The translations under genes and the position numbers were made by a program. Below the pieces are notes generated by a model. That model was given only the letters and a program-made list of their open reading frames with translations, made no database searches and was not told where the DNA came from. Positions 5,103 to 19,371 of a stretch of 64,000 bases of DNA are shown piece after piece (position 1 is the first letter of the stretch; every line of letters starts with the position of its first letter). This stretch comes from a virus. Its lineage: Duplodnaviria > Caudoviricetes. The DNA lies in IMG/VR virus record IMGVR_UViG_3300006092_000329, positions 1,339 to 65,338 of that record; one strand, written 5' to 3'.

Positions 5103-6410
5103 TCAGACCTTCGCCGCCGAGTCGATCACGAACACGCCGAGATCGGTCGGCTCCGTGTTGCCGTTGCCGTCCGGCACGCCGAACCGGACCTTCGCCTTGC
5201 CGTTCATCATCTGGCCGAGCGCCTCGAAGTTGCGGTCGAAGTTGTAGGTCCGCTCGCGGTAGTCGGCGTAGAAGTCCGAACCCTGCGACTTCCCGTAGAC
5301 GTTGGCGAGAGCCTGCGCGCCCAGAAGCAGGGAGCGTTCGACGCACGACGTTGCCGCCAGACCGGCGTTGATGGCCTGATTGGACTCGGTGGCCGTGTAG
5401 CGGTTGGCGACCAGAACGACCTTCGTGTTCTCGGACGCCACCCAGCGGATCGAGCGGTTGATCTTCTTCACGAGGATGCCGTTCCACATCCCAACCTCGC
5501 CACGGAACAGCGGCGACTTGCTGCCGTACTGCGCCCGCTGCCATGCGTACTGCTGGAACGCACGCAGGTTGTTGTTGGCGGTCGCGTCGGTGATCAGCGC
5601 CGAGTACGCCGAGGGCGAAACGAGCAGCAGGTAGAGCGGCTCGTCGTTCGCGGCGGGGTCGTCCACGATCTTGATCGGCTGGAGCGGCAGGTCCATCAGG
5701 TCGATGATGCGGCGCAGTTCGTCCAGATGCGACAGCTTCAGGGTGTCCGAAGCGGTGATCGAGCCGAGTTGCAGACCGCCCTGCACGAAGCTGGAACCGG
5801 ACACGACGTAGTGGCGGTTGTAGGTCGGAGCCTGCACCGCGTTCACCATCACGTCCGAGAACTGCGTGTTCGCGGTCGTGCCGGTGTTGGTCGTGAACTG
5901 GAGTGGCACCACCCAATCCATGCCCGCCTGCGTGCCGCGACCACCGGCCAGCGCCACGAGCATCTGCTGCGTGTCGAGACGGGGGAAGTAGCCCATCAGG
6001 TTCGCCATGGCGATGCCGCGCAGTTGCGTCTTGGTGCGCTGCTGCGCCATCGCGCCGCCCGCGTCGATTGCCTTGGAAAGCAGATCGATACGTGCGTTCA
6101 TGCTGGACCACGTGAGCTTGTCGCCCTTGCCTTCGGCGTTCACGTCGCCCACCAGCGGGAAGCCGGTGATCGTGTTGAACAGGTCCATGGACACCTGATC
6201 GCCGACCGTCTTGGACAGGTCGGTGACGCGGACCACGGGGTAGTCCGGGGCGGTCTGGCCCTTCAGCTTGGATTCGACTTCGCTCTGCTGCGGCGCGGGG
6301 CCGGTGAGGTTGTTGCCGAGGGTGGCCGCACGGAGGTTGTAGGTGAACAGCGCGACCGAGAACTGCTTGACTGCAAGTACCGACCCTGCCGGTACGGAAG
6401 TGGTTGACAT
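5103..6410 (-). CDS. Major capsid protein, N4-gp56-like (DUF4043-type)
   Basis: 435 aa; DLSKTVGDQVS, EGKGDKL and LFRGEVGMWNGILV motifs; follows scaffold; AAGGAG RBS. Confidence 0.9.
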   Translation of the reverse strand: MSTTSVPAGSVLAVKQFSVALFTYNLRAATLGNNLTGPAPQQSEVESKLKGQTAPDYPVVRVTDLSKTVGDQVSMDLFNTITGFPLVGDVNAEGKGDKLTWSSMNARIDLLSKAIDAGGAMAQQRTKTQLRGIAMANLMGYFPRLDTQQMLVALAGGRGTQAGMDWVVPLQFTTNTGTTANTQFSDVMVNAVQAPTYNRHYVVSGSSFVQGGLQLGSITASDTLKLSHLDELRRIIDLMDLPLQPIKIVDDPAANDEPLYLLLVSPSAYSALITDATANNNLRAFQQYAWQRAQYGSKSPLFRGEVGMWNGILVKKINRSIRWVASENTKVVLVANRYTATESNQAINAGLAATSCVERSLLLGAQALANVYGKSQGSDFYADYRERTYNFDRNFEALGQMMNGKAKVRFGVPDGNGNTEPTDLGVFVIDSAAKV

Positions 6411-14999: not shown

Positions 15000-16487
15000 T
15001 CAGGCCGCTCGCCATGAGGCGCGGGTGCGGCCACGGATGGCGGCTACCTGATTCGAGGGTGCCAGAGCGGCGAAGCGGCGCATCATCCAGCCGTAGCGCG
15101 AGGAGTCGAGGTAGTCGTCCATCTCCTTGACGATGATCCCGTCCTTGCGGTGATACAGGCGGAACTCCTCGATCCATGGGCCACAGGTCGAGAAGACCTT
15201 GAAAGTCCCTCCGATCATCGAGGCGAGCATCTGACCCACTGAGCCTTCGAGACTCACGCGGCTGGTGGGCGTGTTCTCCGCCTTGCCTCCGGGGTTCTCC
15301 GGCAGCGTGGCGTGCTCCGCCAGCATGTTGATGCCTTCGTCCCGGTATTGCTTCGCCAGAGCAGGGCCAGCGGCGGTCTCGTTGTTGCCATCCTTGGGCC
15401 ATGCGACGGGAATCCAGTCGCCCTTCGCCCTGATCGCGCTCGCGTGTACGGCGACTGGTTGCCGCTTCGCTCCGTGAGTCGCATAGAGGTACGTGGTGTC
15501 GGTGTCTCTGTCGAGAGCCAACCACGAGACGGCGGTCGGGTGATCGAATCCGAAGTCGATTCCAGCCAGTCGCGGCCAGTGCGCGGGCAACTCGAACGGC
15601 TGGACTGCGATCTGCTGCTCCGGAATGGGAAACACAGCACCAGAGCCAAGCACCGGAATCCCTCTCGCCTTCGCGTCCCTCAAGTGCTCCGGATAGCTCT
15701 CCTCGATCTCCTTCCTGCGCTCCTCCGAGTAGTGCTCCGCGTCCTCAAGCGTCATCGAGACGATGATGGTTCCGACCTTCTTGTCCACCATGAACCGCTT
15801 GACCACAAGGCTCATGCCTTGGAGCGGGGTGAACGTCATCAGCATGATGGCGTCTTCCTTGGCCTGAAGACGGGTCAGGAACTCGATGTACACATCCTCG
15901 GGCGGCTCCTCGTCGCACCAGCCGAAGTCGAGGGTTTCGCCTTGGAACTTCTCCCGGCCTTGGTTGTAGTTCTTGAACTGGAGGATCGACTCTCCGCTCT
16001 GGATGTCTCCTCCTCCGCCATGGCGCACGATCAGCGTGTCCACTCCATCGGCGACGGAGCGGTTCAGGGTCGGTTGCTCGGCGAAGGCATTCTTCGGGAT
16101 CATCCCGGTGCCCCAAGCGTTCGGACGCCCCAAAAGGATGCGCTGAGGGTTGTCCCGAGTCGCTTCCGCAGTCACGCCAGCGGCCCATCCGGCTACAGGA
16201 CGGTCGAAGACCCTGCCCTTCCACCAGTTCGGGTAGCGCCCGGTCAGGTGCATGGCTACCTCAGCGCCCGCAGCCACGGTCTTCCCGACCTGATTCGCGG
16301 CCATGAGCAGGCGCTCACGGTACTCTGTTCCGAGGCGATGGAACTCGATCTGCTTCCGGTAGGGCTGATAGGTCGCCAGCCCGGATTCCCTGAGCCGCTT
16401 CTCGAAGCCAGCCCGAAGGGCTTTCAACTCATCCCGGTTGAGCTTTTCGAGGTACTCTCGGGCGGCGGATAGGTCGATGACACTCAT
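15000..16487 (-). CDS. terL: Terminase large subunit
   Basis: Walker A AANQVGKT, Walker B WCDEEP, RNase H-like nuclease GIDFGFDHPTA and DDYLDSSRY. Confidence 0.95.
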   Translation of the reverse strand: MSVIDLSAAREYLEKLNRDELKALRAGFEKRLRESGLATYQPYRKQIEFHRLGTEYRERLLMAANQVGKTVAAGAEVAMHLTGRYPNWWKGRVFDRPVAGWAAGVTAEATRDNPQRILLGRPNAWGTGMIPKNAFAEQPTLNRSVADGVDTLIVRHGGGGDIQSGESILQFKNYNQGREKFQGETLDFGWCDEEPPEDVYIEFLTRLQAKEDAIMLMTFTPLQGMSLVVKRFMVDKKVGTIIVSMTLEDAEHYSEERRKEIEESYPEHLRDAKARGIPVLGSGAVFPIPEQQIAVQPFELPAHWPRLAGIDFGFDHPTAVSWLALDRDTDTTYLYATHGAKRQPVAVHASAIRAKGDWIPVAWPKDGNNETAAGPALAKQYRDEGINMLAEHATLPENPGGKAENTPTSRVSLEGSVGQMLASMIGGTFKVFSTCGPWIEEFRLYHRKDGIIVKEMDDYLDSSRYGWMMRRFAALAPSNQVAAIRGRTRASWRAA

Positions 16488-16810
16488 TCGTCACCACGAA
16501 GGGCGGTGTACCAGACATTCTCGGGGTGAATGACCATGGCATATGCGCCATCATCATCGATCCAGCAGGGCGATACCTCGTGGCCTTTCACGGCATCCCG
16601 GCAGCGATCCAGCATGGCAAGGGTCATGACGCCTTCCGGGCCGTCTCCGTTGCCCCGGTGAATCCTGATCCCTTCCCAGACTCCCAACTCCCCACGCAGC
16701 AGGCCATCCGGGGCGCTGGCAGGGCTTGGCGGGGCCGGGAATACAGGCAGGGGCAGCTTCGCCGCGACCGCAGCCGCCAGCCCGCGCAGGAAAGCCCTGC
16801 GGTCCATCAT
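16484..16810 (-). CDS. Twin-arginine signal protein carrying capsid-like motifs
   Basis: 108 aa from ATG 16810 (ATGA overlap): MMDRRAFLRGLAAAVAA Tat motif; LLRGELGVWEGI resembles MCP LFRGEVGMWNGI. Confidence 0.65.
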   Translation of the reverse strand: MMDRRAFLRGLAAAVAAKLPLPVFPAPPSPASAPDGLLRGELGVWEGIRIHRGNGDGPEGVMTLAMLDRCRDAVKGHEVSPCWIDDDGAYAMVIHPENVWYTALRGDE

Positions 16811-17028
16811 TCGACCCTCCGGAACCATCCGGCATCCAGCCAGCGTTTGCCGACCAGAAACAGGTGCCCGGTCTGGCACTTCTCGTGCCTGATGCCCTCG
16901 ACCACGGCTACCTTGGGCATCCGGTTCACCGGGCGCTCGGTCTGATTCCAGAGCGGATCAGGGATCACCGTCTCGCCGACCTTGACGGTGGCGGCGGTCT
17001 CTCGGGTGAAATTGGCAGGGTTCTTCAC
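16807..17028 (-). CDS. Hypothetical protein
   Basis: 73 aa, translationally coupled on both sides. Confidence 0.6.
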   Translation of the reverse strand: MKNPANFTRETAATVKVGETVIPDPLWNQTERPVNRMPKVAVVEGIRHEKCQTGHLFLVGKRWLDAGWFRRVE

Positions 17029-17237
17029 GACTTCTCCAGCCTCTTTTTCAGTGCGGAAACCTCGAAATCGAACCGTTCGGCACGGTCCATTGCCGCCAGA
17101 ATGATCTGGTCTGCTTGATACACGGCGCTATCAGCACGACCCCTCGGGGCCGTTGACTTGCCGATTCGCACCACTTCAGCGGCGACAATCCGCGAGGCAA
17201 CCTCAATCCTGAGCCTCAGCAACTCGTCATCGGTCAT
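17025..17237 (-). CDS. Hypothetical helical protein
   Basis: 70 aa, 4-bp overlaps on both sides. Confidence 0.6.
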   Translation of the reverse strand: MTDDELLRLRIEVASRIVAAEVVRIGKSTAPRGRADSAVYQADQIILAAMDRAERFDFEVSALKKRLEKS

Positions 17238-17437
17238 TTTTCGATCCCCAGAACCACCCGCGTATGCTCCAGTTTTCGGAACAGGTCGGATTCCACCTTG
17301 CGCGCCAAGCCGTCCAGCACGAGGAAATAGGCGACTTCCCCGATGGTGTTGCCGTACAAGCCGGACTCGGCAAGGGCTTTCAGCAGGGCAAGCTGATGCC
17401 CCGTCATCTCGAACGAGATGCGCTTCGACTCACTCAC
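17234..17437 (-). CDS. Possible ribbon-helix-helix DNA-binding protein
   Basis: 67 aa; KRISFEM strand followed by two amphipathic helices. Confidence 0.45.
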   Translation of the reverse strand: MSESKRISFEMTGHQLALLKALAESGLYGNTIGEVAYFLVLDGLARKVESDLFRKLEHTRVVLGIEK

Positions 17438-17684
17438 GATTTTCCCTCAAGGGAGAAGTGAGCTTCTCCCTGATCAAGTAGGAAGTTGCCTCGAATGCCA
17501 AGGCGCTGTCAGGGTTGGTGCGCCTGATCTCCCGGCAGAGCCGTCCCACGAGTGCGGTCAGGTCTCTCTCGTGCGCCTCCAGCAAAGTCAACTGCTGGAG
17601 GATCGCGTCAGAGACCTTCAGGCGGCTGGCCCGGATGTCCGTGGCAACCATCCGGTTCAGCAGGGAGCGGATGTCATCGCTCAC
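17430..17684 (-). CDS. Hypothetical protein
   Basis: 84 aa from GTG 17684 (GTGA overlap). Confidence 0.5.
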   Translation of the reverse strand: MSDDIRSLLNRMVATDIRASRLKVSDAILQQLTLLEAHERDLTALVGRLCREIRRTNPDSALAFEATSYLIREKLTSPLRENRE

Positions 17685-17920
17685 AGGGAATGCCTCAGCC
17701 GGATGCCGTCGATGTCGGCGGCGACGTTGGGGTATCTGCGGACCAATTCGGCGAGCAAATCCTCGTGGCGATTCACCCTTGCCTGCCACTTCATCGCCTC
17801 TCGGAACATCTCCGTGCGCTGAATCCGGGCCGTGCCCAAGTCCACCGCCTCCTTCACGGCTTCGAGGTAAGCCTTTCCGAGCGGCGTAGCCACCCATTCG
17901 GTCTCAGCCGTTGAGGACAT
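17681..17920 (-). CDS. Hypothetical protein
   Basis: 79 aa from ATG 17920. Confidence 0.5.
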   Translation of the reverse strand: MSSTAETEWVATPLGKAYLEAVKEAVDLGTARIQRTEMFREAMKWQARVNRHEDLLAELVRRYPNVAADIDGIRLRHSL

Positions 17921-18494
17921 GATCCAGAATCGCTTTCGTTTCCTCGGCGGTGAAAAGATTCGTGCCCACAGGCCAGTCTCGAAGACCTCCAGCGGTAAGA
18001 AGCTGGAACGAGATGGCACCGTCAGGGGAAAAGGTGCGCGGCAGCGGCATGCAGAGAAAGCGGCTCACCATCTGGTCCGTGACCTCGATCCTCGGGCGCA
18101 CCAGCCCCGGCCTTGGGGCGACCGCATTGGCTTCAGCCTCGGCGATCAGGTCACGCAGCGGGGCCGGGAGCGGCTTGACCTCGACATCGCTCCCCATGAC
18201 CTCATCCGTGCCGTCCCACACGAATTCATTCAGGGGGTAATGGGTCTTGCAACCACAGCAGAAGGTTCCCGAGTAGAACTTCGGGTTCCGGGCATAGGTC
18301 TCGGCAATGTCCTGAGCCATCGTCGTCAGAGTGCCGCAAGGCTTGTGGATGTAGGAGCGGCGCACCGGACGCACGAAGCCTTTGGCTCGCTCCTCCGGCG
18401 AGAGCACCACGTATGCCTTCTGCTGCCCCGTCGCCGGGTTGATGTCGAGATAATCATCGGGGAGCGGGCCTCCCCCAGAGCGTTCAATGGTCAC
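17904..18494 (-). CDS. Two-domain protein with N-terminal Zn-binding domain
   Basis: 196 aa from GTG 18494; H-x2-C...C-x2-C (HKPC, FCCGC) domain, Pro linker, second small domain. Confidence 0.6.
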   Translation of the reverse strand: MTIERSGGGPLPDDYLDINPATGQQKAYVVLSPEERAKGFVRPVRRSYIHKPCGTLTTMAQDIAETYARNPKFYSGTFCCGCKTHYPLNEFVWDGTDEVMGSDVEVKPLPAPLRDLIAEAEANAVAPRPGLVRPRIEVTDQMVSRFLCMPLPRTFSPDGAISFQLLTAGGLRDWPVGTNLFTAEETKAILDHVLNG

Positions 18495-18727
18495 TTCTTC
18501 CTCGCCTTGAAGATCGGGCAGAGCGTGCCCTCGCTGCCTTCCATGCGCCGCCTCGGAGAGACCGAGATGGCCTTGTAGGCGTAGTGCTCCGAGATGCAAT
18601 CCGGGACCACCGGATTCGGCGGCAGCGGAGCGAGGCAGGGATACGTGTAGTCCTTCCGGACCACGCGCTTCCCGGCGGCGTTCGGCAAGACCTCCAGATA
18701 CTCGCAGTTCTTGCAGCACGCCTTCAC
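18491..18727 (-). CDS. Small Cys-rich protein
   Basis: 78 aa, CCKNC plus further Cys; coupled to terS. Confidence 0.55.
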   Translation of the reverse strand: MKACCKNCEYLEVLPNAAGKRVVRKDYTYPCLAPLPPNPVVPDCISEHYAYKAISVSPRRRMEGSEGTLCPIFKARKK

Positions 18728-19371
18728 TTCGCCTTCTCCTCTGCCTCTTGCTTCGCAATGGCCTGATTGATGATGTCGAGGACATCCTTCACCTTGTCCT
18801 CCGGCACGACATCGAGCGGATCGTCGATGATCCGTTTCGTCTCGATAAACATGCCGTGCTCACGCCCGAGTAACTCGACCATCTTAGAGGCAGTCGGCCC
18901 GTCCCTCTCGTAGACCTCGACATCCTTCAGGATGATCACGGTGTCGTCAACGAGGATGGGCTGGAGACCTCCGATCTTGGTGCGCTTGCATTCGGTGTAG
19001 GGGCCGAACTCCCCTTCCACGACCTTGTTCACCTTGACCAAAATGGTGCGACCGCGCTTGGCTTTCACCGTGCGCCGCGTAAGCGCCATTTCGAGGTTCT
19101 CGACGGCAGCACGGAGCACGTCCTGCTTGGTGAACTTCAGTTCAGCCAGAGCGGCCTTGCTGGCTTGGACATCGTTGTCAGCCTTGCGCCGGAGAATCTC
19201 CGTCACCCGCTCCATGACCTCGGGATGGTTCCGGATCAGAGCGGTAGAGGCGTCGCGGCAGGTGGATCGCTTGGCCTTCTGGTACGCCTTGGCGTAGGCA
19301 TCGGTCTGGGTCGCCCCCTTGGCGATCTCCTGCGCCACGATCTCCCAACGAGGGTTCTTGAGCACGCCCAT
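18724..19371 (-). CDS. terS: Terminase small subunit
   Basis: LKNPRWEIVAQEIAKGATQTDAY HTH start; ELLGREHGMF C-terminal motif; upstream of terL. Confidence 0.8.
   Translation of the reverse strand: MGVLKNPRWEIVAQEIAKGATQTDAYAKAYQKAKRSTCRDASTALIRNHPEVMERVTEILRRKADNDVQASKAALAELKFTKQDVLRAAVENLEMALTRRTVKAKRGRTILVKVNKVVEGEFGPYTECKRTKIGGLQPILVDDTVIILKDVEVYERDGPTASKMVELLGREHGMFIETKRIIDDPLDVVPEDKVKDVLDIINQAIAKQEAEEKAK

Follow-up and report, generated by a model that had tools for sequence, protein, structure and literature searches.

Proteins that interfere with capsid or virion assembly are known from satellites and prophages and include CpmB of the Staphylococcus aureus pathogenicity islands (SaPI), the capsid-derived Ccm of the phage-inducible chromosomal islands (PICI), Sid of P4 and the tail-assembly blocker Tab. 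To our knowledge, neither an export leader nor an origin as a shuffled piece of a capsid A-domain has been described for any of these, and we know of no phage that puts pieces of its own head-shell protein behind a bacterial export signal. Here, we analysed a gene whose product appears to have this design, in a stretch of 64,000 nucleotides (hereafter the window) that covers positions 1,339 to 65,338 of the IMG/VR virus record IMGVR_UViG_3300006092_000329 (Duplodnaviria; Caudoviricetes). Its 108-residue product (P0001, hereafter the mini-protein) combines a leader of the twin-arginine translocation (Tat) type with a strand motif derived from a major capsid protein (MCP), and belongs to a sporadically distributed family in which the rest of the protein can be replaced as a cassette. 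The combination of a Tat-type leader with re-ordered capsid pieces was found in no paper or family library searched. Like CpmB, Ccm, Sid and Tab, the mini-protein is small and accessory and could, by analogy, act on the assembly of another element; a sequence relation to these four proteins was not found.

Three further systems frame the comparison. The T4 antiholin RI is assumed to use the Sec route. It is small, with a cleavable signal peptide rather than a signal-arrest-release (SAR) domain and a periplasmic domain of ∼70 residues (PMC8385771). The mini-protein resembles RI in that one of its relatives is coupled to a holin gene, but it has no sequence similarity to RI and most members do not lie beside holins. 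With Tat substrates (TIGR01409, PF10518; NapA, SufI and the thylakoid PsbQ/PsbU leaders), it shares RR-x-F-L, an h-region that is rich in Ala and weakly hydrophobic, and a candidate small-x-small site, but here a phage late gene carries the leader and a capsid fragment takes the place of a cofactor enzyme as passenger; in this copy, moreover, Lys interrupts the h-region and Pro stands at +1 of the ASA site. The A-domain of N4 gp56/PF13252 MCPs (TIGR04387; solved relative 8h89) has the signature strand P-L-F-x-G-E-x-G-x-W-x-G-I in common with the mini-protein and, with less certainty, also the helix-strand-helix unit that precedes this strand. In contrast to a full HK97-fold MCP, only ∼70 residues are capsid-like, the N-arm, E-loop and P-domain are absent, the blocks are swapped and the scores fall far under the family cut-offs; judged on its sequence, the mini-protein is thus best described as a derived capsid fragment and not as a capsid protein. 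What this case adds is the swapped order of A-domain blocks in an N4/PF13252-type setting, a precise replacement of the body in a sister phage and a contrast in selection between handle and body. The parts of the gene are as follows.

16484..16810, minus strand: gene of the mini-protein P0001, stop codon included (108 amino acids by translation, N-terminus MMDRRAFLRG)
16815..16820, minus strand: Shine-Dalgarno sequence GGAGGG, read from the sequence, with the first ATG 4 nt and the second 7 nt away
16760..16810, minus strand: residues 1-17, twin-arginine n-region RRAFLR and short Ala-rich h-region (TIGR01409, Pfam TAT_signal and PDB profile matches)
16709..16759, minus strand: residues 18-34, Lys and Pro/Ala-rich linker with terminal ASA, where signal peptidase might cleave although +1 is Pro (sequence reading and heuristic family comparison)
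16658..16708, minus strand: residues 35-51, block 1, strand motif copied from a capsid A-domain strand (BLASTP, hidden Markov model, hhalign, TIGR04387)
16625..16657, minus strand: residues 52-62, Gly/Asp/Pro-rich loop (from composition), candidate new join of a permuted A-domain
16496..16624, minus strand: residues 63-105, block 2, predicted helix-two strands-helix resembling alpha5-beta-alpha6 of the capsid A-domain (AlphaFold2, hhalign, P0013)
16502..16658, minus strand: residues 52-103, swappable body cassette (replacement in a groundwater contig)

This open reading frame (ORF) is real, as borne out by its intact state, by its homologues and by a contig of a separate, independent study of wastewater in which the stretch is identical. 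Relatives of 75-144 residues, ∼20 in number, were collected with an exhaustive HMMER search and with two word-indexed searches. All follow the same plan: a start M-x-RR-x-F-(L/I), an Ala-rich uncharged stretch, a Pro/Ala-rich linker, a strand motif close to N-P-L-F-R-G-E-L-G-R-W-E-G-I-R-I and a variable C-terminal part. Since family members begin with M-x-RR, the second ATG may be the actual start of the window gene. Leader and motif are kept among members that are only 25-45% identical and that reside in unrelated phage backbones. The whole mini-protein is covered by no PHROG, Pfam or NCBIfam family, and PHROGs was also empty for its small neighbours. A tblastn search of GenBank phages at E≤1 returned no homologue and no cultured phage carrying one was found; tblastn with the member P0013 gave chance matches only. 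An IMG/VR pattern scan with the family alignment returned no confirmed relative, a search of the ESM Atlas recovered only look-alikes of Tat leaders and unnamed viral clusters, and a literature search found no description of capsid fragments with a Tat leader. Longer or fused forms were not found either, which is weak evidence, and further leader-bearing genes were absent from the window and from the 138 loci examined. As a minor observation, P0013, P0014 and P0015, which come from different sources, all terminate in the dipeptide W-A, a shared feature or a coincidence.

The leader has the features of a Tat signal. Residues 3-9 of the window protein (D-R-R-A-F-L-R) correspond to the Tat consensus (S/T)-R-R-x-F-L-K near the N-terminus, and R-R-x-F-(L/I) is invariant in 19/19 members. 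TIGR01409 scores the window protein at 17.9 bits against a cut-off of 16.7, and two close relatives also lie above this cut-off; Pfam TAT_signal (PF10518) matches 14 of 18 members at E≤1. When the family profile was compared with all PDB sequences, the top matches were Tat leaders, namely PsbU precursors (E 0.0045), followed by PsbQ and the NapA signal peptide. Among the family, h-regions comprise 12-31 uncharged residues of moderate hydrophobicity (most of them 16-31), and a small-x-small site follows in most members. The twin-arginine leader and Pro linker first read from the letters are therefore confirmed by the RRAFLR motif, the TIGR01409 score, the PDB matches and the Pro/Ala linker. By these features the leader would be a Tat-type signal that may direct actual export.

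The origin of block 1 is well supported. The earlier count of 8 identities in 12 positions with a motif of the phage's own MCP is correct, and the pairwise BLASTP match has an E-value of 3e-4. The relevant parts of the MCP are listed below.

5103-6410, minus strand: MCP gene (Pfam PF13252)
5475-5510, minus strand: MCP motif LFRGEVGMWNGI, counterpart of block 1 (motif location)
5451..5519, minus strand: MCP residues 298-320, counterpart of block 1 (hhalign and motif location)
5586..5753, minus strand: MCP residues 220-275, proposed counterpart of block 2, upstream of the block 1 counterpart in the MCP (hhalign; motifs located at 5613-5741)

To avoid circularity, a hidden Markov model (HMM) was built from distant members only, restricted to their mature part, and run on the 1125 stop-to-stop ORFs from the six frames of the window. 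It retrieved the ORF itself (4e-10) and the MCP (2.6e-5), all others having E>1. The same kind of profile matched the MCP at the same position in 80/80 related viral loci and, among the 16,568 six-frame ORFs of these 80 loci, matched only MCPs and family members. In a profile-profile comparison with hhalign, family positions 1-23 aligned to MCP residues 298-320 with a probability of 90.6% (E 1.3e-6). TIGR04387, which represents N4 gp56-type capsid proteins, matches 8 of 18 members (best E 3.6e-7), and Pfam Phage_capsid_3 matches 7 of 18. These matches cover short stretches only: a full-length capsid match is absent, the best member reaching 29.8 bits against a TIGR04387 cut-off of 60, and P0001 itself has no Pfam capsid match at E≤0.1. 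Across the whole phage genome, TIGR04387 found the capsid gene alone. The motif has conserved residues of its own, G-I-R-I/F where the capsid protein has G-I-L-V, and no co-variation with the cognate capsid protein was seen in the three phages where both are known. Because of these two features, block 1 looks like an old capsid copy under its own constraint and not like the product of recent gene conversion.

Block 2 and its position after block 1 had led to the proposal of a permuted mini A-domain. The strongest evidence is of an indirect kind and comes from the relative P0013, which matches TIGR04387 at E 2.1e-6. Its best stretch, residues 69-106, falls on model positions 177-211, directly ahead of positions 212-231, to which other members align with their motif. 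P0013 itself starts with the motif and has the 177-211 piece after it, whereas in the capsid protein the two pieces are contiguous and stand the other way round. Sequence thus supports the swapped order, since the capsid-model positions matched by the block of P0013 immediately precede those of the motif. At E≤10, P0013 has a single PDB match, which spans 48 residues of the capsid protein 8h89_A, and the MCP of the window matches 8h89_A too. The window ortholog P0004 links to P0013 with an E-value of 6e-14 overall and of 5e-8 when block 2 is taken by itself; the window copy, which is divergent in block 2, does not align directly to P0013. Besides, P0019 gives a colinear match to TIGR04387 positions 202-245 (E 3.6e-7), with the helix-strand-helix unit next as judged by eye. 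The opposite order of the two blocks in the MCP (5475-5510 versus 5613-5741) was correctly read, and a homologue that keeps both blocks in reversed order relative to the capsid model, proposed as a check, exists in P0013. The A-domain of the HK97 fold interrupts the P-domain, and its entry and exit points are close together. Because these points adjoin, a circular permutation of the A-domain core is plausible by analogy, and the Gly-rich loop at residues 52-62 occupies the site expected for the new join. A colinear alternative is hinted at by a second, weak BLAST segment, in which the motif would replace the strand before alpha5, although this arrangement is without statistical support.

A natural experiment on the body of the protein is provided by a 2204-bp groundwater contig that is 97-98% identical elsewhere to the window. 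In this contig, window positions 16502-16658 (157 nt) are exchanged for 142 unrelated nt; leader, motif and the last five codons are retained while residues 52-103 are replaced. The encoded protein (P0005) is identical to P0001 over its first 51 residues, and the replaced body keeps the reading frame and the helix-strand pattern. Selection also differs along the protein. The ratio of nonsynonymous to synonymous substitution rates (dN/dS) versus locus L001 is 0.24 for residues 1-54, 1.22 for residues 55-108 and 0.81 for the whole, values that rest on small counts; in the same comparison terL has 0.10 and the upstream 73-amino-acid ORF 0.18. Another member shows the body in another form: P0015 (L133:1077-1388) has an N-terminal portal fragment as body behind the same handle, with E 2e-11 to the portal of L134 and 5.3e-7 to Pfam P22_portal. 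Together, the cassette replacement and this portal fragment point to a family design of a constant handle with exchangeable bodies that would derive from virion proteins. Two side observations belong here. The true portal gene of L133 would be further downstream, past a 137-amino-acid gene. The synonymous rate (dS) of the mini-gene versus L001:10001-10327 is 0.08, two to three times under that of the flanking genes (0.20-0.27), which may mean that the two phages exchanged this gene recently or that its DNA is itself under constraint.

The genomic position of the gene varies among relatives. Its immediate neighbours in the window are the following.

15000..16487, minus strand: terL (Terminase_6N/6C), its start overlapping the stop of the mini-gene (ATGA)
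16807..17028, minus strand: 73-amino-acid ORF upstream of the mini-gene, without family match, its stop overlapping the start of the mini-gene

Four-base overlaps of the ATGA type are thus shared with both neighbours. Relatives occupy at least five genomic contexts. The gene lies before terL in the window, in L001 and in the P0005 contig; in L002-L004 it overlaps the start of a Phage_holin_3_3 gene in the lysis cassette, and in L005 it is upstream of terS. It stands between terL and the portal gene and is then followed by a conserved ∼140-amino-acid gene in L008-L010, L133 and L134, overlaps a Tad2-like gene in a nin-like region in L136, and is alone in a prophage on a 1.2-Mb contig in L135. 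No neighbour gene is conserved across all contexts. The translational coupling to terL claimed at the outset is therefore present as an ATGA overlap but has to be regarded as incidental, since the relatives sit elsewhere, and a terL-specific partner role was rejected as the position varies among them. Among the 80 viral loci whose capsid protein is related, only 1 (L014) has a family member, and among 41 bacterial-genome (prophage) loci there is none; this scarcity makes the role of an essential assembly tether unlikely. Two of these contexts deserve mention on their own. In the terL-portal context, the ∼140-amino-acid gene without known family always comes after the mini-gene (L008:7468-7896, L133:1379-1789, L134:10426-10875), with pairwise E-values of 1e-24 to 1e-38. 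In L136 (L136:9597-10372), P0012 overlaps the stop of the Tad2-like gene (PF11195, Thoeris anti-defence), and the pair comes after RusA and YbcO.

We give about an even chance to the reading of the mini-protein as an accessory late protein that is exported by, or tethered through, the Tat system, with a re-ordered capsid-derived mini-domain as passenger and a role in conflict. The handle, residues 1-51, consists of the Tat-type leader, the Pro/Ala linker and an ancient copy of an A-domain strand, the source being an HK97-fold capsid protein of the N4/PF13252 type. The body, residues 52-103, would resemble the helix-strand-helix unit that precedes this strand in the capsid protein, so that the passenger as a whole might form a circularly permuted A-domain core. 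In such a scenario, the mini-gene would be translated together with the lysis and packaging genes, and the leader would be recognised by the Tat system of the host. The folded passenger of ∼75 residues would then reach the periplasm or remain tethered at the inner membrane, where it may act in conflict, by excluding other phages or dealing with a host factor, rather than in the assembly of the phage's own head. The variable body would determine specificity.

Several observations weigh against this reading. For the leader, the Pfam TAT_signal model gives the window protein 15 bits, under its gathering cut-off of 22.7, and the window copy is atypical in having an h-region of 8 residues followed by Lys and by a Pro-rich stretch of 16 residues, the last three being ASA and the next residue (+1) Pro. 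Efficient export or cleavage of this copy is uncertain as its h-region spans only 8 residues before the Lys and a Pro follows ASA. The phage itself encodes neither TatA nor TatC. For block 2, hhalign of the C-terminal sub-profile against the capsid clade of the phage gave a sole alignment, on MCP residues 220-275, at a P-value of 0.055, and a 7-sequence block-2 profile matched no capsid protein in the PDB. The likeness initially noted between block 2 and the MCP thus falls on the same MCP region and gains support through P0013 and P0004, but the direct match is only borderline; homology of block 2 in the window copy would follow from its relatives, and the permuted fold is a proposal. For the fold, AlphaFold2 models built from 3 and from 19 sequences reached predicted local distance difference test (pLDDT) values of only 41.7 and 56.1, respectively, which are of low confidence; in a 78-amino-acid construct, block 2 was modelled as H34-44, E52-54, E59-61 and H69-73 with pLDDT 60-70. 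Foldseek matched nothing in PDB or BFVD at E≤0.001, a result of little weight given the poor model. Of the permuted HK97 A-domain proposed at first, the leader and the two capsid-like blocks in swapped order thus hold family-wide, whereas the fold is putative because the AlphaFold models are poor. Finally, it is not obvious which periplasmic target there would be for the copy of a strand that is buried in the capsid core, and a body dN/dS near 1 could equally reflect relaxed constraint.

The main rival explanation, which we consider possible but rather unlikely, is that the target is a capsid protein in the cytoplasm. The core strands would then bind to or co-fold with capsid subunits, either those of a competitor phage or the phage's own so as to occupy a capsid-sensing host defence, and the twin-arginine leader would serve as a docking handle. 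It would bring the complex to the membrane or to the Tat receptor, or drag along a hitchhiker partner, the passenger alone not being exported. No core elements of the capsid protein are better conserved than the copied pieces, another member (P0015) has a conserved portal piece, a swappable body fits a specificity module and one relative overlaps a Tad2-like anti-defence gene. However, the leader of most members resembles a complete, cleavable Tat signal, and a protein of this kind, made late together with the phage's own capsid protein, would be liable to poison the assembly of the very phage that encodes it; the motif also has residues of its own (G-I-R-I/F, not G-I-L-V) and the cognate capsid protein is not tracked in three phages. 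An elaboration that is distinctly unlikely, in our opinion, would turn the family into a modular anti-virion device: the Tat-leader handle would dock at the membrane or Tat receptor, the capsid or portal core copies would capture or mis-fold the subunits of competitors or occupy a host capsid sensor, and cassette swapping would retune the target. Such a device, if true, would be the head-assembly counterpart of the tail-assembly blockers, made from the virus's own structural genes.

Two other explanations dispense with a capsid-related activity. The gene may be a decaying or neutral remnant of a rearranged capsid gene whose ORF is kept by chance and has no present function. This is in line with the dN/dS of 0.81 overall and ∼1.2 in the C-terminal half, with the sporadic distribution and with the poor structure predictions, but conflicts with the conservation of leader and motif at 25-45% identity across unrelated phage backbones, with the N-terminal dN/dS of 0.24, with an intact ORF that is identical in a different study and with the frame and helix-strand pattern retained by the replaced body of the sister phage; we therefore hold it to be very unlikely. 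Still less probable is a periplasmic antiholin-like regulator of lysis timing that would bind the periplasmic part of a holin or spanin, its capsid likeness being mere ancestry. In L002 the gene overlaps the start of Phage_holin_3_3 inside the lysis cassette, and in the phage type of the window the late block that contains the gene also has, ∼3 kb upstream of it, an Rz-like spanin gene and two holin genes. T4 RI offers a precedent as a small periplasmic antiholin with a signal peptide (PMC8385771). However, a holin adjoins the gene in only one (L002-L004) of at least six contexts, known antiholins have no sequence relation to the mini-protein and the holin families differ among the carrier phages.

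Either way, the constant handle with its swappable body forms a compact and testable system. If the mini-protein is exported, a cytoplasmic structural domain would have been re-used outside the cytoplasm; the Tat route suits such a capsid-derived passenger because it carries folded proteins. If it is not exported, it may stand for a new kind of capsid-directed interference or decoy module. A permuted A-domain core, if true, would also be a natural example of an HK97-fold sub-domain standing alone.

The window represents nearly all of a 65,338-bp IMG/VR record that CheckV rates as complete. On the minus strand, the late region comprises in this order the lysis cassette, terS, seven small overlapping genes, terL, a P22-like portal gene and the PF13252 MCP gene, and the mini-gene is the last of the seven small genes between terS and terL. 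The lysis cassette, assigned via the 96%-identical locus L001, consists of a DUF5675 protein, an Rz-like spanin and two holins; spanin, holins and terS lie in the same orientation as the mini-gene. The phage is podovirus-like, of roughly 65 kb, and the mini-gene is an accessory late gene. The stretch is present in activated-sludge/wastewater metagenomes from two studies, the contig of the second being identical over 15900-17500; in one run labelled metatranscriptomic, the mini-gene ORF was not covered.

The small genes around the mini-gene show further variation. A 70-amino-acid ORF (17025-17237) is cleanly missing from the near-identical groundwater contig through a skip of 209 nt (window 17025-17233). 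This indel is small and moron-like and affects the row of seven overlapping mini-genes that fills the terS-terL interval. A 293-amino-acid ORF at 17904-18785 is probably spurious: gene calls of L001 for the region at window 17437-18727 give a 78-amino-acid gene rich in Cys pairs (18491-18727) together with genes of 147 and 84 amino acids, all without known family apart from a weak match to phrog_660.

Concerning the host, related PF13252 MCPs are frequent in prophages of Betaproteobacteria (Nitrosospira and relatives), which makes a Gram-negative betaproteobacterial host from wastewater likely. The PF13252 capsid clade of the phage is very common as prophages in the ammonia-oxidising Nitrosospira and Nitrosovibrio (L092-L131, contigs of bacterial genomes), and some single genomes, such as those of Nsp11 and Nv4, contain two loci of this clade.

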